Shown here one piece after another: positions 14,284 through 24,500 of a stretch of DNA of 64,000 nucleotides. This DNA is from an uncultured delta proteobacterium (GTDB lineage: Bacteria > Desulfobacterota > RBG-13-43-22): assembly GCA_963843145.1 (NCBI GenBank), contig CAWJJC010000020.1:672001-736000 (forward strand). The letters are read 5' to 3'. Both the position numbers and the translations under genes were made by a program. Numbering within the stretch: position 1 is the first letter of the stretch; each line of letters begins with the position of its first letter. The notes beneath the pieces are model-generated. The model made no database searches, was not told where the DNA came from, and saw only the letters and a program-made list of their open reading frames with translations.

Positions 14284-14523
14284 TTCGGTTCTCCAGCGGT
14301 GCTTTAACTAACCTGATTTTTTTATCAAGGCTGGCGAAAAGGTCTCCTCGTTCGAATTTGCCGAATATAGCATAAAATCCTCCTGATAGGGGTGTAAAGC
14401 CTCTTTCCCCTGGGTTGATTGGACGTTGACAAATCGAGGAATTCCAACCAATATAAAACCCGGCAAGTTTACCAGTTAAACGGAGCCTAACGTTTCTGCC
14501 TTAATAGAATGGTCCGGTTTAGT

Positions 14524-15222
14524 ATGACGACCTTAAAAAGCAATGTTAGGGAAGCGCCGGCAACCGAATTTCTGAAAGAAGTTCCGGCCAGTCCGACATT
14601 CCTGAACCTTCCGGAAGCCAAGCGGGATCGAATTATCTTGGCGGCCACCCGGGAATTTTCAGAAAAGGGATACCAGGGAGCTTCCATCAACACCCTGGTG
14701 GACGACCTGGGAATCTCCAAGGGATCGATATTCCAATATTTTTCTAACAAGAAAGGCCTTTTTCTCTTTATCTTCCAGGCGGCGGTGGCCCAGGTCCGCA
14801 AAACCCTGGTAATGGTAAAAGAAGAAACCGAGGAACTGGAGGTCTTTGAACGAATCAGGAGTTCACTCCTGGCCGGAGTCGATTTCGTTCGTCGGCATCC
14901 CCATATCTATAGAATCTATTTGAAATTACTATTCGATCGGGACGCCCCTTTCCGCAATGAGCTGCTTCAGGCCGTTCGATTATTTTCCGCCGAATATCTG
15001 GGTTCTCTGGTGCGAAAGGGGATGGACCGGGGGGAGATCCGCCGGGATATCGCCCCGGAACAGGCGGTCTTTATCCTGGACGCGGTGCTGGACCGATACC
15101 TGCAAGCCTATATGGTTCCTTATCTGGACCACAGAGGCAATATCTACCGGGTGGATCAAAAAAAGGTGGAAGAGTGGGCGGTCGGACTGGTTACTATTTT
15201 GCGAAAAGGCTTGCAAGGATAG
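14524..15222 (+). CDS. TetR/AcrR family transcriptional regulator (start uncertain)
   Basis: TFLNLPEAKRDRIILAATREFSEKGY...ISKGSIFQYFSNKKGLF helix-turn-helix. Confidence 0.92.
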   Translation: MTTLKSNVREAPATEFLKEVPASPTFLNLPEAKRDRIILAATREFSEKGYQGASINTLVDDLGISKGSIFQYFSNKKGLFLFIFQAAVAQVRKTLVMVKEETEELEVFERIRSSLLAGVDFVRRHPHIYRIYLKLLFDRDAPFRNELLQAVRLFSAEYLGSLVRKGMDRGEIRRDIAPEQAVFILDAVLDRYLQAYMVPYLDHRGNIYRVDQKKVEEWAVGLVTILRKGLQG

Positions 15223-15259
15223 TTTTTTTTCTTTATAAAATGACCAGGTGGTCATTTTA
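15211..15259 (+). promoter_or_regulatory. Sigma70-type promoter of the mqn operon overlapped by a perfect palindromic operator
   Basis: TTGCAA-N17-TATAAA at 15211-15239; TAAAATGACC-AGGT-GGTCATTTTA at 15236-15259. Confidence 0.75.
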
Positions 15260-15275
15260 GTGGAGGTGTTTAAAA

Positions 15276-16364
15276 GTGCTTGAAGTCAGAGATGCGCGTC
15301 TAATGCCCATCCGGGAAAAGGTTTTATCGGGTGGGCGCTTGGGAAAGGAAGATGGTTTGGCCCTCTATCAAAGCCCTGACCTGCTGGGTGTGGGGGCTTT
15401 GGCCAACCTGGTCCGAGAGAACCGGAACGGCAACCGGGCCTATTACATCGTCAACCAGCATATTAACTATTCGAATATCTGTCAGAACCGCTGCCGTTTC
15501 TGCGCCTTCGGTCGGGACCCGGAGGATCCGCTGGCTTATCAAATGAGCCTGGAGGATATCGAGGCGAAAGTCCGGGAACGGCTGTCCGACCCGATCAGCG
15601 AAATTCACATCGTCGGGGGTATCCATCCCACCCTTCCCTTTGCCTACTACCTGGAAATGCTTCAACGGATTAAAAGAATCCGCCCGTCGGTTCACCTGCA
15701 AGCCTTCACGGCCGTGGAAATCGCCCATTTGGCTCACCTGGCCCAAAAATCCATTGAAGACACCTTGTCGGTCTTGATGGAAGCCGGGTTGGGATCTTTG
15801 CCGGGGGGCGGGGCGGAGGTCTTCAGCTCCCGTATCCGGGAAAACCTCTGCGCCAAAAAACTCCCTTCCCAGGATTGGATTTCCGTTTGCCAGACGGCCC
15901 ACCGTCTCGGACTCCATACCAATGCCACCCTGCTCTACGGCCATCTGGAGACCCTGGAAGAGCGGGTGGACCACTTGCTGGCCCTGCGGAAGGCCCAGGA
16001 TGAGACCGGAGGTTTTCTGACCTTTATCCCGCTCGCTTTCCATCCCAAGAATACCGAGTTGGCGGGAATGGCCGGCACGACCGGCGTGGATGATCTGAAA
16101 AATATCGCCGTGGCTCGCCTGATGCTGGACAACTTTCCCCACATCAAGTCCTTCTGGATCATGATCGGTCCCAAACTGGCCCAGATTTCCCTGTCCTTTG
16201 GAGCCGACGATATAGATGGAACGGTCATTGAAGAACGGATTACCCATATGGCCGGGGCGGAAACCGCCCAAGCCATGACCCGGGAGGAAATTCTTCACCT
16301 GATCCGGGAAGCCGGACGTGAACCGGTGGAGCGGGATACTTTATATAATACTCTAGTCTATTAA
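15276..16364 (+). CDS. mqnE: Aminofutalosine synthase (radical SAM)
   Basis: HINYSNICQNRCRFCAF, EIHIVGG, AFTAVEI, LPGGGAEVF, PHIKSFWIM and EERITHMAGA. Confidence 0.92.
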   Translation: MLEVRDARLMPIREKVLSGGRLGKEDGLALYQSPDLLGVGALANLVRENRNGNRAYYIVNQHINYSNICQNRCRFCAFGRDPEDPLAYQMSLEDIEAKVRERLSDPISEIHIVGGIHPTLPFAYYLEMLQRIKRIRPSVHLQAFTAVEIAHLAHLAQKSIEDTLSVLMEAGLGSLPGGGAEVFSSRIRENLCAKKLPSQDWISVCQTAHRLGLHTNATLLYGHLETLEERVDHLLALRKAQDETGGFLTFIPLAFHPKNTELAGMAGTTGVDDLKNIAVARLMLDNFPHIKSFWIMIGPKLAQISLSFGADDIDGTVIEERITHMAGAETAQAMTREEILHLIREAGREPVERDTLYNTLVY

Positions 16365-16386
16365 ACCTGGTTGCCGCTCAAACCCG

Positions 16387-17407
16387 ATGCGCCTCAATTT
16401 CCAACAAGCCCTGGACTGGTACCAATCGGATCTCCTGACACTCGGGCAAGCCGCCCAGGAGGTTCGCTGGAAGCTCCACCCCGAACCGGTGGTCACTTAT
16501 GTGGTGGACCGGAACATTAATTACACCAATGTCTGCCTTTCCGGCTGCCGTTTTTGCGCTTTTTATCGGCCGGCGGATTCCCCGGAAGCCTATGTGCTGG
16601 ACCGGGAGGTCTTGGGCAAAAAAATTGAAGAAACATTGGCCCTGGGAGGCACCCAGATACTACTTCAGGGCGGGATGCACCCTGCTCTGCCCTTTTCATT
16701 TTATGAGGACTTGCTTCAATGGATCAAGGCCCGTTACCCGATCCACATCCACGGGTTTTCGCCCCCCGAAATCAATCACCTGTCCCGTATAGCGGGGCTG
16801 CCCCTGGAAACGGTTCTAATCCGGCTCAGGGATTCCGGGCTTGGCTCCATTCCCGGGCGGTGGGGCTGAAATACTGGTGGACCGGGTCAGGGAACGGGTT
16901 TCTCCCCGAAAAGGGACGAGCGCCGAGTGGCTTCAGGTCATGGAAACGGCCCACCGTCTCGGGTTGCGAACCACCGCCACCATGATGTTCGGCCATCTGG
17001 AAACGGTCGCAGACCGGATTGAGCACCTCCTGGTCGTTCGAGAACTGCAGGATCGTACCGGCGGCTTCACCGCTTTCATCCCCTGGACCTTCCAGCCGGG
17101 GAATACCGATCTACGGCGGATTCCGGCCGGGGGGACGGAGTACTTGCGTATGCTGGCCTTGTCCCGGTTGGTCCTCGACAACATTCCCAACATCCAGGCT
17201 TCCTGGGTTACCCAGGGGCCCAAGGTCGGACAAATCGCCCTTCTGTTCGGAGCCAACGACCTGGGCAGCACGATGATCGAAGAAAATGTGGTGGCCGCCG
17301 CCGGGGTGGCTTACCGCTTATCTATTGAAGAGCTGGCCCGCCTGATCACGGCCGCCTGTTTTATCCCCCAACAGCGGGACACCTTTTACCAAAAGGTGGC
17401 GGCATGA
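16387..17407 (+). CDS. mqnC: Cyclic dehypoxanthine futalosine synthase (radical SAM), with one extra base near 16856
   Basis: VTYVVDRNINYTNVCLSGCRFCAFYR, then IPGGGAEIL, FIPWTFQPGNT, QASWVTQG and MIEENVVAAAG in the second frame. Confidence 0.9.
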
Positions 17408-18270
17408 CCCCCCGTGTGGCGGTTATCGCCAGGGTTGGAGCTCATCGGTCTTTTCTGGAACAGGGCGCCCGAGAGTTAAATGTTCAGCCCTTGAACACTC
17501 CATTCGGATTAAGCGTTCCGATCCATTTTTTGGAGTCGGAGGGCATCCCCTTTGTGGTCTTATCCCGCCACGGGGAGGACCGATATGCTACCGCGGCCCC
17601 CTTCGTAAACGACCTGGCCAACATCTGGGCACTGAAAGAAGCCGGCATCGAAAAAATCCTGTCCTGGTCGGCCCCCGGTTCTCTGAATCCGAATTTGGCG
17701 CCTGGTTCCCTGGTGGTGGTGGATGATTTGCTGGATGAAACCCGGTCGGGCCCGCGGTCTTTTTTCGAGGGAAAGGGTATCGGGGTAATCCGGCAGGAGG
17801 CTGTGTTTTGTCCGGAGATCAGAGTCTTGATGGTGGAAAAGCTGGCGAACGGACGGTTTCCCCTTCATTCGAAAGGAGTGTATGTCTCCGTGGAAGGGCC
17901 ACGACTGGAAACCAAGGCGGAGATCCGCAAGTATCGTCTGCTAGGAGGAGACCTGATCGGCATGAACCTGGCGCCGGAGGCCTTCCTGGCCAAGGAGCTG
18001 GAGATGTGTTACGGGGCCTTGTGCTATCCCGTCAATTTCGCCGAAGGGGTCAAGGTGCGCCCTTACGTGCGGGGGGTCCTGTTTGAAGGACTGGCCTATC
18101 CCGAGGAAATGGCGCTGGTCAAAGAAGTGGAAGAGGCCTTCCCGGATCTGATCCTGCCTTTATTGGCCCCCTTGACGGAAACCCCCCGCGCCTGCCCCTG
18201 TCCCGTCGCTATGGAGCGCTATAAAATTCGGGGGGACATCGGGGAGGACTTTCACACGTGGATCAAATAA
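17404..18270 (+). CDS. MTAP/PNP-fold nucleoside phosphorylase-like protein (candidate futalosine-cleaving enzyme)
   Basis: TPFG, SRHG, ANIWALKE, EGPRLETKAE, PEAFLAKELEMCY and VNFAEG. Overlaps both neighbouring genes. Confidence 0.88.
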   Translation: MTPRVAVIARVGAHRSFLEQGARELNVQPLNTPFGLSVPIHFLESEGIPFVVLSRHGEDRYATAAPFVNDLANIWALKEAGIEKILSWSAPGSLNPNLAPGSLVVVDDLLDETRSGPRSFFEGKGIGVIRQEAVFCPEIRVLMVEKLANGRFPLHSKGVYVSVEGPRLETKAEIRKYRLLGGDLIGMNLAPEAFLAKELEMCYGALCYPVNFAEGVKVRPYVRGVLFEGLAYPEEMALVKEVEEAFPDLILPLLAPLTETPRACPCPVAMERYKIRGDIGEDFHTWIK

Positions 18271-19460
18271 CACTCTACCAGGCCCGCTGGATCGTCCCGG
18301 TAAGCCGCCCCCCCATTGAGCAAGGGATCATCGCGGTCCGAAACGGCGAGATAACCGCGGTAGGGAGGGGAAAGGAAATTTCCACGGCCTTTCCCGGGGA
18401 ACGGCGGGACTTGGGCCAGGGAGCGATCCTTCCCGGCTTGATCAATGCGCACACCCATGTGGAACTGTCCCAGTTTAAAGGTCTCATTCCGGAAGGTTTG
18501 GGGTTTGTTTCCTGGGTGAGGAACCTGTTGTCTCTCAAAGAAAAAACCAAGGCGGAGAATCCGGACGAGGCCGTGGGACCGGCCTGGGATGAAATCAGCC
18601 GTACCGGCACCTGTGCCGCCGGGGACTGGATCAGTCTGGGGCGCTTGATCCCGCGAGGGTCTTTATCGAAAATATTCCGTCGGTTATTCTTTGAAGTGAT
18701 CGGGTTTGACTCCTCGGCGTTGACTTTGCCGGAGGGCCTCGACGAGAGACCGGCGCCGGACCTATTCGGAAGTTTAACCCTGGGGGCCCACGCCCCCCAT
18801 AGCACCTCGGCCGCTTTGCTCCAGGCCGCCAAAACCTGGACCCGGCGAAGGGGTCTGCCGCTCGCCGTTCATGTGGCGGAATCGCCGGAGGAAACTGAGT
18901 TTCTGTTCTCCGGCAGCGGCCTCTGGAAGGATTTTTTGATCGAGCGGGGTAAATGGGTCGAGGGTTGGAGAGCCCCGGGGACCACTCCGGTAAAATACCT
19001 GGACCACCTGGGTCTGCTGGATGAAAAGACGCTGGCGGTTCACCTGACCCAGGCGGATGAAGCGGATCTTTCCCTGCTCCGAAAAAGAAACGTCCGGATA
19101 GCGGTTTGTCCCCGCAGCAACCAATTCATTGTCGGCGCCCTCCCCAAAATTCCTTTTATGCTGCGGATGGGCCTGAACCCGGCCTTGAGCACCGACAGCC
19201 TGGCGAGCAACCGGGACCTCAGTCTCTGGGGAGAAATGGAAACCGTGCAGCAGGCCTTCCCGGAGATCGAACCCGAGGAAATTATCCGGATGGCAACGAT
19301 CAACGGGGCTTCGGCCCTGGATCTTTCCGAAGAGCTGGGAGACTTGACGCCGGGGAAAAAGGCCCGCATGTTCTTTCTTCCTTTGCCTGAGGTCAATAAG
19401 GCGAATTTATTGTCCGCCATCATTCAATCCCGGGGCCACGGATTGGAATGGGTGTCGTAA
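18258..19460 (+). CDS. Amidohydrolase, probable aminofutalosine deaminase
   Basis: PGLINAHTHVELS, HAPHS, HVAESPEE, CPRSN and STDSLASN, plus the mqn operon context. Confidence 0.85.
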   Translation: MDQITLYQARWIVPVSRPPIEQGIIAVRNGEITAVGRGKEISTAFPGERRDLGQGAILPGLINAHTHVELSQFKGLIPEGLGFVSWVRNLLSLKEKTKAENPDEAVGPAWDEISRTGTCAAGDWISLGRLIPRGSLSKIFRRLFFEVIGFDSSALTLPEGLDERPAPDLFGSLTLGAHAPHSTSAALLQAAKTWTRRRGLPLAVHVAESPEETEFLFSGSGLWKDFLIERGKWVEGWRAPGTTPVKYLDHLGLLDEKTLAVHLTQADEADLSLLRKRNVRIAVCPRSNQFIVGALPKIPFMLRMGLNPALSTDSLASNRDLSLWGEMETVQQAFPEIEPEEIIRMATINGASALDLSEELGDLTPGKKARMFFLPLPEVNKANLLSAIIQSRGHGLEWVS

Positions 19461-19493
19461 CCAAACCTATCATTTTAAAAATGGGAAGTAACC

Positions 19494-20942
19494 ATGGCCT
19501 ATGCTGATTTACAGTCGTTTATATCCAGGCTGGAAAAGGAGGGGGAACTGGTTCGCATCAGGGAACCGCTGGATCCCTATTTGGAGATCTGCGAGGTAAC
19601 CGACCGGGTCTGCAAGGCGGGCGGTCCCGCACTCCTTTTTGAGGCGGTGAAGGGGAACACCGTTCCGGTGCTGACCAACGCCTTCGGTTCATTAAAACGG
19701 ATGTGCCGGGCTCTGGAAGTGGAGCGCCTGGATCAGATCGGAGAGGAAATTCACCAGTTGTTGGCCCTCAAACCTCCCCAAGGTTTCATGGACAAACTCC
19801 GGCTGCTCCCCCGGCTCAAACGGCTTCGGGACCTGCTGCCGCGCACGGTGGACCAGGGGCCCTGCCAGGAAGTCGTTTTTCAGGAAAACCCGGACCTGTC
19901 CGCCTACCCGGTCCTGACCACCTGGCCCCTGGATGGCGGTCCATTCATCACCCTTCCCCTGGTCATCACTCGGGATCCGTTGACCGGGAAACGCAACGTG
20001 GGCATGTACCGCCTCCAGGTATTTGACGCCAGGACCCTGGGGGTCCACTGGCAACTCCATAAAGTGGGGGCCCAGCATTTTCGCGCCGCCGAAGCCTCGG
20101 GGAAGGACCTGCCCGTGGCCGTGGCTCTGGGACCAGACCCGGCCCTGACCTACGCGGCCACCGCCCCGCTGCCGGAAGAGCTGGATGAATTCATGTTCGC
20201 CGGATTCCTGCGCCGGGAGCCCGTCAAACTGGTCAAATGTCGAACCATCGATCTGGAGGTGCCGGCCAACGCCCAGATCGTCATTGAAGGGATCGTCCCG
20301 GCCGGGAAGCGGCGACGAGAAGGGCCTTTCGGGGATCACACGGGCTATTATTCCCTGGCGGATGACTATCCGCTGATGGAGGTAACCTGCATCACTCAGC
20401 GAAAGAACCCTGTTTACCCGGCTACGGTAGTAGGGGTGCCGCCCATGGAAGACGCCTTCCTGGGCAAAGCCACGGAGCGGATTTTCCTGCCCCTGCTTCG
20501 TCAGACCCTGCCGGAAATCCGGGATATGCATCTGCCGGCCGCCGGCGCTTTCCATAACTTCGCCCTGGTGTCCATAAACAAGCGCTATCCCGGGCACGCC
20601 AAAAAGGTCATGATGGCCCTCTGGGGGCTGGGACAGATGATGTTTTCCAAATTCATCGTGGTCTTTGACGGGGAGGTGGACGTCCAGGACCTGAACCAGG
20701 TCCTCTGGCAATGGGGGGCCAATGTGGACCCCCGGCGGGACTCGGTACTGGTGGAAGGCCCGGTGGATGCGCTGGATCACGCCGCACCGCTGCCGGCTCT
20801 GGGCAGCAAAATCGGGTTTGATGCCACAACCAAATGGCCGGAGGAAGGATTCGGCCGGCCCTGGCCGGATAAGATCCGCATGGATCCTCAGGTGAGCAAG
20901 AGGATCAATCAAATCTGGTCCAGGCTGGGGCTGCCGCGATGA
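19494..20942 (+). CDS. ubiD: UbiD-family menaquinone biosynthesis decarboxylase (MqnL-like)
   Basis: RNVGMYRLQ, EGPFGDHTGYY, PPMED and GPVDALDHA. Confidence 0.93.
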   Translation: MAYADLQSFISRLEKEGELVRIREPLDPYLEICEVTDRVCKAGGPALLFEAVKGNTVPVLTNAFGSLKRMCRALEVERLDQIGEEIHQLLALKPPQGFMDKLRLLPRLKRLRDLLPRTVDQGPCQEVVFQENPDLSAYPVLTTWPLDGGPFITLPLVITRDPLTGKRNVGMYRLQVFDARTLGVHWQLHKVGAQHFRAAEASGKDLPVAVALGPDPALTYAATAPLPEELDEFMFAGFLRREPVKLVKCRTIDLEVPANAQIVIEGIVPAGKRRREGPFGDHTGYYSLADDYPLMEVTCITQRKNPVYPATVVGVPPMEDAFLGKATERIFLPLLRQTLPEIRDMHLPAAGAFHNFALVSINKRYPGHAKKVMMALWGLGQMMFSKFIVVFDGEVDVQDLNQVLWQWGANVDPRRDSVLVEGPVDALDHAAPLPALGSKIGFDATTKWPEEGFGRPWPDKIRMDPQVSKRINQIWSRLGLPR

Positions 20943-21799
20943 AGCAGCTCGCGACGATTTTTGAACTAGTCAAATTTGAACATACGATTTTTGCCCTGCC
21001 CTTTGCCTATCTGGGGGCCTGGCTGGCGGCTTCCGGTCCGCCCACCCTGAAGGTGGGGCTGCTGATCCTGGGGGCCATGGTCGGCGCCCGGACGGCGGCC
21101 ATGGCCTTCAACCGGATCGCCGATGCCAAAATCGACGCACTCAACCCGCGAACGGCCGGCCGGCCGATTCCCTCTGGACGCCTATCCTCGGCCGCAGCCT
21201 GGCTTGTCTGTCTAGCGGCGGCAGCGGCTTTTTTTCTGGCCAGTTGGGCCCTAAACCCCCTGGCTTTGGCCCTTTCGCCCCTGGCCCTGGGGGTGATCCT
21301 GGCCTATTCCTACACGAAACGGTTTACGGCGACCTCTCACCTGATACTGGGACTGGCCTTGGCGATAGCTCCCATCGGGGGTTGGGTGGCGGTGCGAAAT
21401 GAACTGGGGCTGCTCCCCTTGGTCTTGGGGGCCGGGGTCTTGTTTTGGGTGGCCGGCTTCGATGTCCTCTATGCCTGCCAGGACGAATCCTTTGATCGCC
21501 GGCACGGGCTGTATTCCCTTCCGGCCCGCAGGGGAGCCGCGGCGGCCTTTCGGGTGGCCGGTTTTTTTCATTTTCTGGCTTTTCTGTTTTTTGCCCTCAC
21601 GGGCCGACTGGCCAACCTGGGGGGATTCTTTTTTATCGGTTTAACCCTGGTCTTTATCTTTCTCTTTCTGGAACACCTGATTATTTCCCCCCGAGATCTT
21701 TCCAAGCTGCAGACTGCTTTTTTCACCTTGAACGGGGCGGTCAGTCTGGTTCTTTTTTTGGCCACCTGGCTGGAATTTTGGAAAGGACGTTCGTACTAA
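20939..21799 (+). CDS. ubiA: UbiA-like polyprenyltransferase (MqnP-like)
   Basis: KFEHTIFALPFA, FNRIADAKIDALNPRT, YSYTKRFT and GFDVLYACQD. Confidence 0.93.
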   Translation: MKQLATIFELVKFEHTIFALPFAYLGAWLAASGPPTLKVGLLILGAMVGARTAAMAFNRIADAKIDALNPRTAGRPIPSGRLSSAAAWLVCLAAAAAFFLASWALNPLALALSPLALGVILAYSYTKRFTATSHLILGLALAIAPIGGWVAVRNELGLLPLVLGAGVLFWVAGFDVLYACQDESFDRRHGLYSLPARRGAAAAFRVAGFFHFLAFLFFALTGRLANLGGFFFIGLTLVFIFLFLEHLIISPRDLSKLQTAFFTLNGAVSLVLFLATWLEFWKGRSY

Positions 21800-21856
21800 A
21801 ACCTCTTGCCCCAGGGGGTACCTGCGGAGCATGAAAAAAATAAAGGAGGAGGTCCG

Positions 21857-22864
21857 ATGAATAAAAAAATTTTCCTCTTGTTAGGGGCCGCTTTCTGGCT
21901 GGTGAGTTTCTGTCCCCAGCCGGCCTCGGCCCTGACCACGGTCAAAGTGGGGATGCTCAAAGTTTCCAGCAGCGCTCCTCTTTTTGTGGGACTGGAAAAA
22001 GGATATTTTCAGGAGGAGGGGATCAAGATCGAGCCGATCTGGTTCAAGTCGGCCCAGCCCATTGCCATGGCTCTGGCCAGCGGGGATATTGATGTCGGGG
22101 CCACCGGTCTGACCGCCGGGCTATACAACGCCGCCGCCCAAGGAACCAAGCTGGCGGTCGTGGCGGATAAGGGTCGGGAATGGCCCGGCTATAAATTGAC
22201 CGCCCTGGTGGTGGATTCGAACCAAGCCAAGGCCGGAATCAAAGATCTCGCTCAACTCAAGGGTAAGCGGATCGGCATCACCCAGATAGGCTCCACCTTT
22301 CACTATATGCTGGGCAACCTGCTGGAGAAAAGGGGCCTGTCTCTCAAGGACGTCAAAGTCGTTCCCCTGAACAGCCTCAATACGATGCGGGACGCCGTTT
22401 TCAGCCACCAGATCGAGGCCGCCTTCATGGTCCAGCCCCATGTCACCCCGGCGGAAAAAGCGGACTTGGCCGAAGTGCTGCTCTGGGTGGGTGATCACCT
22501 GCCTTACCAGTTGGGAGGGATCTTTTATGGAGAAAAACTGATCAAGAACCACTCCCTGGCCGTCTCTTTTCTTAAGGGCTATATTCGCAGTTGCCGGTAT
22601 TATCATGAAAACGGATTGAGCAAGAAAGCGGGGGTGCCGACTCCGGAACTCCTGACCCTGATCGCTCGGTATACGGAAGAGAAACCCGAGGACGTGGCCG
22701 CCGGGCTCCCCTATATTGATCCCAACGGAGAGCTGCTCAGTGGTGACATTCAAAAACAGATTGACTGGTACGCGGCCCATGGCCTGGTGATCCGAAGGAT
22801 GCCTTCCTCCGAAATCATGGACCTTTCGCTTTACCGTGAGGCTCTGAAACAGCTTAAAAAATAA
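21857..22864 (+). CDS. ABC transporter substrate-binding protein (SsuA/NMT1-like)
   Basis: GGAGG RBS, signal peptide, APLFVGLEKGYFQEEGI and LKGKRIGITQIGST. Confidence 0.9.
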   Translation: MNKKIFLLLGAAFWLVSFCPQPASALTTVKVGMLKVSSSAPLFVGLEKGYFQEEGIKIEPIWFKSAQPIAMALASGDIDVGATGLTAGLYNAAAQGTKLAVVADKGREWPGYKLTALVVDSNQAKAGIKDLAQLKGKRIGITQIGSTFHYMLGNLLEKRGLSLKDVKVVPLNSLNTMRDAVFSHQIEAAFMVQPHVTPAEKADLAEVLLWVGDHLPYQLGGIFYGEKLIKNHSLAVSFLKGYIRSCRYYHENGLSKKAGVPTPELLTLIARYTEEKPEDVAAGLPYIDPNGELLSGDIQKQIDWYAAHGLVIRRMPSSEIMDLSLYREALKQLKK

Positions 22865-23640
22865 TGCCGGTCTTGATCGAACAGCTTACCAAAACCTATC
22901 TGGACCGGAAGGGGCGGACCTTGACGGCGCTGGAAGGAGTGGATTTGACTGTCCGCGAGAGCGAATTCCTGACCCTCCTGGGGCCCAGCGGCAGCGGAAA
23001 AACAACACTGCTCAATATCATCGCCGGGTTGCTATCCCCCACTTCCGGCCGGGTGGTCTTCGAGGGAGCGAGTCTCAATGGTCGGCCGCTGACGGCGGTT
23101 GTTTTTCAGGAAGGCGCCCTTTTCCCCTGGCGGACCGTGGCAAAAAACATTCAGTTCGGACTGGAGGAAAAGGGCCTGGGAAAAACACAGCGCCGATCCC
23201 TGGCCGCTGAATTTATCCAATTGACGGGCCTGGCCGGCTTTGAGGATCGGTATCCCCACCAGCTCTCCGGAGGGTTAAAACAGCGGGTGGCCTTGGCTCG
23301 GGCCCTGGCCGTGAATCCCTATCTCCTGTTGATGGATGAACCGTTATCGGCCCTGGATGCCCAGACCCGGCTGCTGATGCAGCGGGAAATTTCGCAAATT
23401 TGGGAAAAGGCCAGAAACAGTGTCTTATACGTCACCCACAATATTCGGGAGGCCGTTTTCCTCAGCGATCGGGTGGCCGTCCTCTCGCGGAGACCGGGAC
23501 GGATCATAGACCTGGTCTCCATCGACCTGCCCCGTCCCCGCAGCGAGGATCTAACCCGTGAGCAGCCCTTCCAGCGATACGTGGATCGCTTATGGGCCCG
23601 GATCAAGGACCAAGCCCGCGAGGCCGTTGAGGAGGGATGA
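22864..23640 (+). CDS. ABC transporter ATP-binding protein (SsuB/TauB-like)
   Basis: [29 protein letters not shown] and LLMDEP. Confidence 0.94.
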
Positions 23641-24500
23641 TGGCAGAGAAAAAGACCGCCTCTTTCTTAATCAGCCATCGGACGCCCCAGCCGTCCTATG
23701 CGGCGGCCCGAACCGGGACGGTTCGGGACAAGACCGCTTTTATCGATGACCGGCCCCAGCCTTATTTGAGCTGGATCGCTTTTGCGGTCTTGCTGGGCCT
23801 CTGGGAAGCGGCCGGCCGTCTCTCCCTGGTCTCCCCCCTCTTTTTGCCGGCTCCCAGCGATATTCTCCTGGAAGCCTGGGGACTGCTGATCTCCGGCCAG
23901 CTTTTCCGGCACCTGGGGATCAGCCTGTTCCGAATTGGAAGTGGTTTTATGCTAGCCGCCGGACTGGGCGTTCTGTCCGGGATCCTGCTGGGTTCTTCGC
24001 GCCTGGCAGAGGCGCTGGGGAATCCGATTCTGGCCGCCCTCTTTCCCATCCCTAAAATCGCCATCCTCCCCTTGCTGATTCTCTGGTTGGGAATCGGGGA
24101 AGCCCCGAAGATTGCGGTAATCGGTCTGGGGGTCTTTTTCCCCCTGGCCATCAACGTCTATACGGGCGTTAAGAACGTGGATCCCCTGTTGATCCGGGTG
24201 GCCCTGAGCCTCGGTTCCAGTCGTCTGGGCCTGATCAGAAAGGTTGTCTGGCCCGCCATTCTGCCCATGATCTTTGCCGGTCTGAAGCTGGGCCTGGGGA
24301 TCTCGCTCCTTTTGGTGGTGGCCGCCGAGATGATCGCCGCCGACGCCGGGATCGGGTATCTCATCCTCACCGCCGCCGACTTGATGCAGACCAAGAAACT
24401 GATGGTGGGGATCGGGATGCTGTCCGGGCTCGGAATTTTGTTTAACTGGCTGCTGGGGAAAATGGAACGGTGGCTGATTCCCTGGAAAGAGGGTCTCTAA
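23637..24500 (+). CDS. ABC transporter permease (SsuC/TauC-like)
   Basis: LPAPS, PIPKIAILPLLILWLGIGE and VVAAEMIAADAGIGY. Confidence 0.93.
   Translation: MMAEKKTASFLISHRTPQPSYAAARTGTVRDKTAFIDDRPQPYLSWIAFAVLLGLWEAAGRLSLVSPLFLPAPSDILLEAWGLLISGQLFRHLGISLFRIGSGFMLAAGLGVLSGILLGSSRLAEALGNPILAALFPIPKIAILPLLILWLGIGEAPKIAVIGLGVFFPLAINVYTGVKNVDPLLIRVALSLGSSRLGLIRKVVWPAILPMIFAGLKLGLGISLLLVVAAEMIAADAGIGYLILTAADLMQTKKLMVGIGMLSGLGILFNWLLGKMERWLIPWKEGL

Follow-up and report, generated by a model that had tools for sequence, protein, structure and literature searches.

The window examined here is a whole stretch of 64,000 nucleotides from an uncultured delta proteobacterium (GenBank assembly GCA_963843145.1, contig CAWJJC010000020.1, positions 672,001 to 736,000), and its subject is a gene for a 288-residue MTAP-fold protein at 17404-18270 on the + strand, which lies inside an operon of the futalosine pathway. 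This MTAP-like gene probably marks a variant of the menaquinone route. Seven + strand genes spanning 14509-21799 make up the operon, in the order TetR-mqnE-mqnC-MTAP-like gene-deaminase-mqnL-mqnP, and an ATP-binding cassette (ABC) transporter follows directly:

14509..15222, + strand: TetR-family regulator, first gene of the cluster (PF00440, 49.1 bits)
15276..16364, + strand: mqnE, aminofutalosine synthase, a radical S-adenosylmethionine (SAM) enzyme (TIGR03700, 502.3 bits, above the cut-off of 434.55)
16387..17407, + strand: mqnC, cyclic dehypoxanthinyl futalosine synthase, in two open reading frames (ORFs) through a +1 frameshift (matching TIGR03699 positions 2-159 and 156-341)
17404..18270, + strand: MTAP-fold protein, candidate futalosine phosphorylase/nucleosidase (PF01048, fold and aligned residues)
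18258..19460, + strand: amidohydrolase, probable aminofutalosine deaminase (PDB matches, an NF006269 match below cut-off, and invariant residues)
19494..20942, + strand: mqnL, UbiD-family menaquinone decarboxylase of the SCO4490 type (TIGR03701, 649 bits, above the cut-off of 495.9)
20939..21799, + strand: mqnP-like UbiA-family prenyltransferase (PF01040, 181 bits; NF041586 MqnP_DT, 279 bits, below the cut-off of 430)
21806..24500, + strand: ABC transporter of uncertain operon membership, directly after mqnP, with an NMT1/SsuA-type binding protein carrying a signal peptide, an ATPase and a permease

The junctions around the MTAP-like gene are tight. Its ATG overlaps the stop codon of mqnC as ATGA (17404-17407), and the ORF of the downstream amidohydrolase begins at 18258, giving a 13-nucleotide overlap with the end of the MTAP-like gene. 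Both overlaps had been noted in an earlier reading made from the letters of the window (hereafter the sequence-only reading), which proposed the protein as a candidate stand-in for the futalosine hydrolase MqnB. Its remark that the operon holds neither mqnB nor MTAN agrees with profile searches of the operon and extends to the whole assembly.

Assignment of the protein to the MTAP fold is likewise borne out. PF01048 (the PNP_UDP_1 superfamily) matches with 103.9 bits, above its cut-off of 25.1, an AlphaFold model built from 30 homologues has a mean pLDDT of 90.4, and the best Foldseek matches are the human, Sulfolobus and Aeropyrum MTAP, with TM scores of 0.73-0.81 over the full length. By sequence, the best solved relatives are the human and archaeal MTAP, and the MTIP of PDB entry 3OZB matches the protein at 91.5 bits. 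The scores fall below the cut-offs of both the MTAP model TIGR01694 (167.5 bits, cut-off 274.85) and the MTIP model NF006599 (131.3 bits, cut-off 223). Neither TIGR03664 (MqnB) nor TIGR01704 (MTAN) is among the NCBIfam matches of the protein at E<=0.001, and a genome search with TIGR03664 gave no match at the MTAP-like locus.

Functional sites were mapped through a pairwise alignment with the vertebrate MTAP representative P0230 (34% identity over 216 residues), with human numbering following that of P0230. At the positions that we take to form the MTAP phosphate site (T18, R60, H61, T93 and T197), the window protein keeps R55, H56 and S89, with R60/H61 corresponding to R55/H56 and T93/A94 to Ser89-Ala90, and has lost two threonines, as the GGTG loop with T18 reads ARVG (V11) and M196-T197 reads M187-N188. 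The base loop D220-Y-D222, of which D220 and D222 presumably contact adenine in human MTAP, is N211-F-A213; the Asp-x-Asp pattern of an adenine loop is absent, and the Asn that is a base-loop feature of the 6-oxopurine-type MTIP is present as N211. The alignment reproduces the site changes listed in the sequence-only reading (GGTG to ARVG, M-T to M-N and D-Y-D to N-F-A, with R-H kept).

Close relatives of the protein number in the hundreds and carry the database label 'MTAP' or 'MTAP family purine nucleoside phosphorylase'. The 80 loci from species-representative genomes on which the family neighbourhood counts are based come from uncultured Deltaproteobacteria-type metagenome-assembled genomes (MAGs), Acidobacteriota, Armatimonadota, Abyssobacteria and anammox Planctomycetota (Kuenenia, Scalindua, Brocadiales), with further loci from Nitrospirota, Nitrospinota, Desulfurobacteriaceae (Aquificota), Spirochaetes and Bacillota. 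In a 30-member alignment R55, H56, N211, A213, E214, C136, C202, C264 and C266 are among the invariant residues, and the motif N-[YF]-A-E-G is present in all 30 members and, among 120 close database relatives with 240 residues or more, in 118. Most of the 30 have an N-terminal I-G-G-S-x-A-Y together with G-M-T, and ARVG and GMN occur jointly in three, the window protein and its two nearest relatives. The remodelled phosphate site described in the sequence-only reading is therefore a property of the window protein and a small-subclade trait, not a family-defining one, as most members keep GGS and GMT.

The base-loop Asn needs a similar adjustment. In a 161-row MTAP-family alignment, ordinary bacterial MTAP relatives, too, usually have Asn at the 211 position, within the motif NxAAG, and four of the five tested relatives of this Asn type pass NF006599, versus neither of two Asp-type proteins. 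The Asn-type pattern and N211 are consistent with a preference for 6-oxopurines; the discriminating mark of the family is Glu214 of N-Y-A-E-G, found in all 73 mqn-linked rows (a group built on this residue) versus 1% of the 88 other rows. Additional clade-specific residues are Y61 (at the position of human H65), W88, R130/Q131 and R272, some of which presumably line the 5'-substituent pocket of MTAP. The C-terminal CxC was rejected as a family mark, being found also in 64 of about 120 other representatives of at least 240 residues.

Set against the characterized enzymes, the window protein shares with MTAP (TIGR01694; PDB 1CB0, 2A8Y and 1V4N) the whole-length fold, the R-H pair of the phosphate site, the S/T-A pair and the C-terminal CxC that many prokaryotic members also have, but it scores below the model's cut-off, has N-F-A-E-G for D-Y-D, carries the subclade changes of T18 to V and T197 to N, and is encoded in an mqn context and not in one of methionine salvage. 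MTIP (NF006599; 3OZB) likewise has a base-loop Asn and a partner deaminase that makes its inosine-form substrate, whereas the window protein is again below cut-off, has Glu214 for the usual Ala and has another gene context. MqnB (TIGR03664) and MTAN (TIGR01704), which are hydrolases without a phosphate site, belong to other branches of the PF01048 superfamily; the proposed site of reaction would be the same, the removal of the purine from (amino)futalosine, and the phyletic pattern of MqnB is mutually exclusive with that of the MTAP-like family.

This pattern was followed in two samples, of which the first is a cross-phyla set of 50 family-bearing genomes. PF02621, to which MqnA and MqnD both belong, passes its cut-off in 40 of these genomes, 37 of which carry a single copy. 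Based on a quick tree and BLAST, anchored on solved structures (two of chorismate dehydratase and one of TTHA1568/MqnD), the copy is MqnA, with MqnD present in two genomes only (G037 and G048, in the latter on a 2.5-kb contig) and absent from 48. MqnB is over cut-off in a single genome and MTAN in ten, nine of them at a weak 76-94 bits. MqnC is over cut-off in 40 genomes and MqnC/MqnE-like genes occur in 44, while in the other six MqnC/MqnE-like matches are missing at E<=1e-60 and MqnA does not reach its cut-off. The Scalindua-type MAG G037 holds a canonical MqnB-MqnD pair (G037:C72:21921-23362; loci L090 and L093) in addition to an MTAP-like gene with a deaminase; the genome may have both variants, or the contig may be foreign.

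The second sample consists of 151 Desulfobacterota genomes, of which 71 are MqnC-positive. The family profile is bimodal across them, with 12 genomes at 369 bits or more and the ordinary MTAPs at 194 bits or less. In seven of the 12 an ordinary MTAP-type gene is present as well (two matches each), and the match is the only one of the MTAP family in the source genome of the window (G000) and in G059, G101, G138 and G172. Together with three genomes of a sister clade (see below), the 12 form a set of 15 variant MqnC-positive genomes from eight families, which are not independent owing to kinship, so that the counts are given without probabilities. MqnB (E<=1e-15) and MqnD are found in none of the 15, the MTAN model is over cut-off in none (one weak match), and PF02621 is present in at most one copy, which is MqnA in 13 genomes and missing in G000 and G076. 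The 56 other MqnC-positive genomes include 49 with an MqnB match and 54 with two PF02621 copies (MqnA and MqnD), and none of the 56 lacks MqnD; the MqnD copy adjoins MqnB in the ten non-variant genomes that were examined. Two genomes (G109 and G146) have MqnB, MqnC and MqnD, with MqnD as the sole PF02621 copy and no MqnA found. The anti-correlation with MqnB and MTAN that the sequence-only reading had proposed as a test is thus seen both across phyla (MqnB in one of 50) and within the phylum (none of 15 versus 49 of 56). A separate 'variant-type' MqnC was considered and dropped, as the MqnC proteins of the variant genomes form no clade of their own in a FastTree of 62 rows, which is weak evidence, support values not being considered.

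The partner most often found beside the family is an amidohydrolase, which lies within 600 nucleotides downstream of the MTAP-like gene at 41 of the 80 loci. An mqnC gene is directly upstream at 22 loci and some mqn gene is present at 30; 61 have either the amidohydrolase or an mqn gene, and several of the 19 with neither are short or cut. Gene order varies by lineage. With X for the MTAP-like gene, it is mqnL-ubiX-mqnP-mqnE-mqnA-mqnC-X in Armatimonadota, deaminase-mqnE-mqnC-X in Nitrospirota and X-deaminase in anammox bacteria, and in the Desulfobacterota family f10 it is mqnC-X-deaminase-mqnA versus mqnC-deaminase-mqnA in canonical genomes.

The amidohydrolase of the window has its best PDB match in DR_0824 (2IMR; 100.4 bits), a protein that Goble et al. 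2013 reportedly showed to deaminate aminofutalosine, and matches 7LKJ ('Aminofutalosine deaminase') at 52.9 bits and NF006269 at 137 bits, below the cut-off of 320. H65, H67, H205, E208, H262 and D313 do not vary among 20 homologues and constitute the full deaminase residue set, in keeping with the deaminase-like character first ascribed to this neighbour. A profile finds orthologues of at least 283 bits in 31 non-variant MqnC-positive genomes, compared with 225 bits for the MtaD-like paralogue of the source genome, and in canonical genomes such as G080, G089 and G057 the deaminase gene lies between mqnC and mqnA. Because these orthologues occur in canonical clusters, the deaminase is common to both forms of the pathway, and what is specific to the variant is the MTAP-like gene. 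The amidohydrolase was rejected as a stand-in for MqnD on the grounds that its orthologues occur in canonical clusters having MqnD and that no deaminase residue has been lost. The remaining conserved neighbours (SerRS, LolA, IspF, a dynamin-like GTPase, RidA, SurE and a PQQ-propeller protein) reflect lineage-specific synteny and offer no candidate for the MqnD step. Among them, a SurE-family phosphatase/nucleotidase gene directly follows the MTAP-like gene at nine Armatimonadota-type loci (L013, L017, L018, L024, L027, L037, L047, L058 and L062), an adjacency that may be mere synteny or, should a sugar 1-phosphate be formed, may be relevant. One Armatimonadota locus has a DUF4432 (mutarotase-like) gene on the upstream side of mqnL (L011:751-1941).

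The assembly of the source genome (5.35 Mb; 97.9% complete, 6.9% contamination) contains four PF01048 loci: the MTAP-like gene, a PunA-type PNP, a weak AMP-nucleosidase-like ORF and a broken MTAN-like domain. A canonical mqnB elsewhere in the genome, which the sequence-only reading had named as telling against it, was looked for and not found, with no TIGR03664 match over cut-off in the whole assembly. The only weak match (23.7 bits) is the broken MTAN-like domain, which is fused to an NTPase-like protein (G000:C28:34722-35317; L004), is interrupted by a TGA and adjoins an AbiEi-like gene; its appearance is that of a defence-type gene in decay, not of MqnB. The assembly also yielded no TIGR01704 match at E<=1e-15, no PF02621 protein (MqnA/MqnD), and neither MenD nor MenB over cut-off, so that the operon is the only menaquinone route found in the genome. 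The steps of MqnA, MqnB and MqnD are all without an assigned gene in this genome. The MTAP-like gene encodes its only MTAP-family protein. The PunA-type PNP (NF006054, 352 bits) adjoins an MtaD/5'-deoxyadenosine-deaminase-like amidohydrolase (G000:C27:203273-207013; L001), which makes a second deaminase-phosphorylase pair, and an IF-2B-family isomerase and a class II aldolase are present, both unlinked to the operon.

Three genomes (G000, G001 and G076) have no PF02621 protein despite possessing MqnE and MqnC, so that the supply of the MqnE substrate, 3-[(1-carboxyvinyl)oxy]benzoate, has no assigned gene there. An ABC importer directly follows mqnP in the window and in the relative L007 (there, binding protein and ATPase). 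The NMT1-type binding protein was considered as a hidden MqnA/MqnD analogue and rejected, as its signal peptide and the ABC ATPase and permease that follow it mark it as part of a transporter.

The two mqnC ORFs of the window (16387-16869 and 16841-17407) are split, by comparison with the relatives L007 and L008, by one extra C near 16852 in a C run (16845-16870). The extra C is missing from contig X2 of a related strain, and the near-identical contig X1 stops 5 nucleotides past the site; the frameshift may be an assembly error or may be real, and the public contigs are compatible with both. L007 and L008 also keep the TetR gene upstream of mqnE. Two wetland metatranscriptome contigs, X6 and X8, match 17572-17771 with 2 differences in 200 nucleotides and 1 in 158 nucleotides, respectively, which places the sequence in an RNA library and is no proof of transcription.

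On balance, we lean towards the view that the MTAP-like gene belongs to a distinct branch of the MTAP/trimeric-PNP family, one devoted to the futalosine route, and encodes a futalosine-cleaving, hypoxanthine-releasing enzyme of the phosphorylase type in place of MqnB. The substrate, chemistry and order of steps that we infer would be as follows. MqnE would make aminofutalosine, the adjacent amidohydrolase would deaminate it to futalosine, and the MTAP-like enzyme would cut the N-ribosidic bond of this hypoxanthine nucleoside, taking the position of the futalosine hydrolase MqnB. Cleavage would probably be phosphorolytic in most members, with hydrolysis possible in the ARVG/GMN subclade, and the products would be hypoxanthine and dehypoxanthinyl futalosine, or its 1-phosphate, for use by MqnC. 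Homology, the purine loop, the phosphate residues in most members and the pairing with a deaminase together point to a 6-oxopurine nucleoside as the compound cleaved. The obvious candidate is futalosine, whose usual cleaving enzyme is missing exactly where the gene is present, which favours assignment to the MqnB step. Where it is the sole MTAP-family member, the enzyme may also serve the salvage of methylthioinosine and 5'-deoxyinosine.

Several observations weigh against this assignment. MqnD is missing as well (48 of 50 genomes across phyla and 15 of 15 within the phylum), so a simple exchange for MqnB leaves a gap; of the replacement proposed in the sequence-only reading, the absence of MqnB alongside the gene stands, while a one-for-one swap is incomplete and leaves the pathway open. 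The nucleosidase is not always missing, as the MTAN model is matched in ten of the 50 genomes, nine times weakly. The six genomes of 50 with no MqnC/MqnE-like match and no MqnA over cut-off, in four of which the gene adjoins a QueT-type energy-coupling factor transporter, indicate either that part of the clade acts outside menaquinone synthesis or that the assemblies are incomplete. As the sole MTAP-family protein of the source genome, the enzyme may also, or only, clear methylthioinosine and 5'-deoxyinosine, and the mqnC of the window may be truly frameshifted. The MqnC proteins from variant genomes form no separate clade and so do not hint at an altered MqnC substrate, a weak point. Finally, the only earlier prediction for such a gene, in the available text of PMC4746308, is for the MqnD step.

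With MqnD vanishing along with MqnB, the naphthoate ring must be finished by something else, and the possibilities are the MTAP-like protein itself, a bifunctional enzyme or a phosphorylated branch. The last of these is attractive because it explains the joint loss of MqnB and MqnD, and we nevertheless rate it as unlikely. In such a phosphorolytic branch, a futalosine phosphorylase would produce dehypoxanthinyl futalosine 1-phosphate, and one gene would displace both MqnB and MqnD. The phosphate ester at C1' would make the MqnD chemistry both impossible and unnecessary, and after MqnC the opening and cleavage of the sugar would fall to an isomerase of the methylthioribose-1-phosphate-isomerase type and an aldolase, yielding 1,4-dihydroxy-6-naphthoate and dihydroxyacetone phosphate (DHAP) by analogy with the DHAP shunt for 5-deoxyribose. 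The branch is consistent with the joint gene loss, with the phosphate site of most members and with the unlinked isomerase and aldolase. The IF-2B-family isomerase (PF01008) was rejected as a marker of the phospho-route, as it is present in 146 of the 151 genomes of the phylum sample and does not discriminate.

That the MTAP-like protein itself might take the MqnD step follows an existing proposal. In the available text of Ravcheev and Thiele 2016 (PMC4746308), a PF01048 protein named 'MqnZ' is predicted from its clustering with mqnE/mqnA/mqnC in genomes without mqnD and is proposed as a substitute for MqnD; missing MqnB or MTAN is not reported there for these genomes. The term 'mqnZ' is absent from the main text of PMC5738691. 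The window family resembles 'MqnZ' in being a PF01048 protein found with mqnC/mqnE in genomes without mqnD. The closest counterpart is the sister clade, represented by three Desulfobacterota genomes, whose protein is about 28% identical to the window protein and keeps N-Y-A-E-G and CxC but has G-Q-S. Its gene order is deaminase(-)|mqnE-mqnA-mqnC-X-mqnL, with X here the sister-clade gene, and its database relatives are named from Pelotomaculum, Desulfotomaculum, Desulfofundulus and Thermosyntropha. Based on the overlap of taxon names with the available text of PMC4746308 (Pelotomaculum, Desulfotomaculum and Thermosyntropha among them), the sister clade is likely the 'MqnZ' group, to which the locus MHY_27640 belongs.

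Under this proposal the protein would convert cyclic dehypoxanthinyl futalosine to 1,4-dihydroxy-6-naphthoate, and another nucleosidase or phosphorylase would remove the base, for which the enzymes behind the MTAN-model matches in ten of the 50 genomes could serve. Absence of MqnD is indeed the most consistent correlate of the gene (48 of 50; 15 of 15 versus none of the 56 others). The substrate of MqnD has no purine, however, and yet the purine-loop Asn and the phosphate-site Arg and His are invariant; the closest and most frequent partner is a deaminase, the maker of a hypoxanthine nucleoside; and base removal would become an orphan step, with 49 of 50 genomes lacking MqnB and 40 of 50 lacking an MTAN-model match over cut-off. 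We also know of no PNP-fold enzyme for a retro-aldol reaction, and we regard the assignment to the MqnD step as rather improbable.

Also doubtful, to our minds, is a role confined to the salvage of by-products, in which the enzyme and its deaminase would clear 5'-deoxyadenosine (from MqnC and other radical-SAM enzymes) and methylthioadenosine via their inosine forms, like the DadD/MTIP of methanogens, with the mqn location protecting the radical-SAM steps. The gene encodes the sole MTAP-family protein in the source genome and in G059, G101, G138 and G172, the source genome has no MTAN, and Asn-type relatives fit the MTIP model. The likeness of methylthioinosine to futalosine and the promiscuity of the methanogen enzyme, which could accommodate futalosine-type substrates according to the available text of Sekowska et al. 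2018 (PMC6302742), can also be counted for salvage. Yet seven of the 12 clade genomes in the phylum sample have an ordinary MTAP-type gene as well, the source genome has a separate MtaD-like deaminase beside its PunA-type PNP, the deaminase partner is orthologous to that of canonical mqn clusters, and the absence of MqnB and MqnD exactly where the gene is present would stay unexplained.

The family is not restricted to menaquinone synthesis. For a minority of its members the neighbour is a QueT-type energy-coupling factor (ECF) transporter, and three such members belong to genomes that carry no mqn genes. A QueT-family ECF transporter (S component, two ATPases and T component) precedes the MTAP-like gene at L079, L082 and L083, at L086 the ECF genes are two ORFs upstream with the QueT gene following, and at L010 and L022 the pair of MTAP-like gene and deaminase is near a QueT-type transporter. 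The genomes G045, G047 and G050 (loci L079, L082 and L086) lack any MqnC/MqnE-like match at E<=1e-60; for MqnA, G045 and G050 give no match and G047 one below cut-off. These members may have a different salvage role, perhaps for 7-deazaguanine nucleosides. That the family as a whole is a general salvage phosphorylase for an imported 6-oxopurine-type nucleoside (e.g., 7-deazaguanine), recruited to mqn loci in particular lineages without a fixed role, is suggested by these transporters and by the three genomes without mqn genes but is very unlikely, as the QueT-linked members are more distant (34-43% identity), MqnC/MqnE-like genes occur in 44 of the 50 genomes and the window gene overlaps both mqnC and the deaminase gene.

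The preferred reading, a futalosine-cleaving enzyme at the MqnB step, differs from the account of 'MqnZ' in the available text of PMC4746308 in that the named taxa appear in the sister clade and that the protein was there assigned to the MqnD step and not to base removal. The gene class was thus noticed in 2016, and the variant is not as undescribed as the sequence-only reading had supposed; the step given to it then was another one. What this analysis adds is the window clade with its breadth and signature Glu, together with the joint absence of MqnB and MqnD where the family is present, the deaminase common to canonical clusters and the corrected argument on the phosphate site. No experiment on this gene class was found in the main texts searched, which did not extend to the subscription literature of futalosine enzymology and yielded nothing beyond PMC4746308 and PMC6302742.

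The futalosine pathway is the menaquinone (vitamin-K2) route of many anaerobes and several pathogens and is a studied drug target. With the family annotated as 'MTAP', anammox bacteria, Nitrospirota, Armatimonadota, many Desulfobacterota and Firmicutes seem to have an incomplete pathway, without MqnB and MqnD. The comparative pattern corrects, or at least tests, a ten-year-old prediction, as given in the available text of PMC4746308, and activity of the family on futalosine would fill one of the missing steps or reveal a phosphorylated branch of the pathway.

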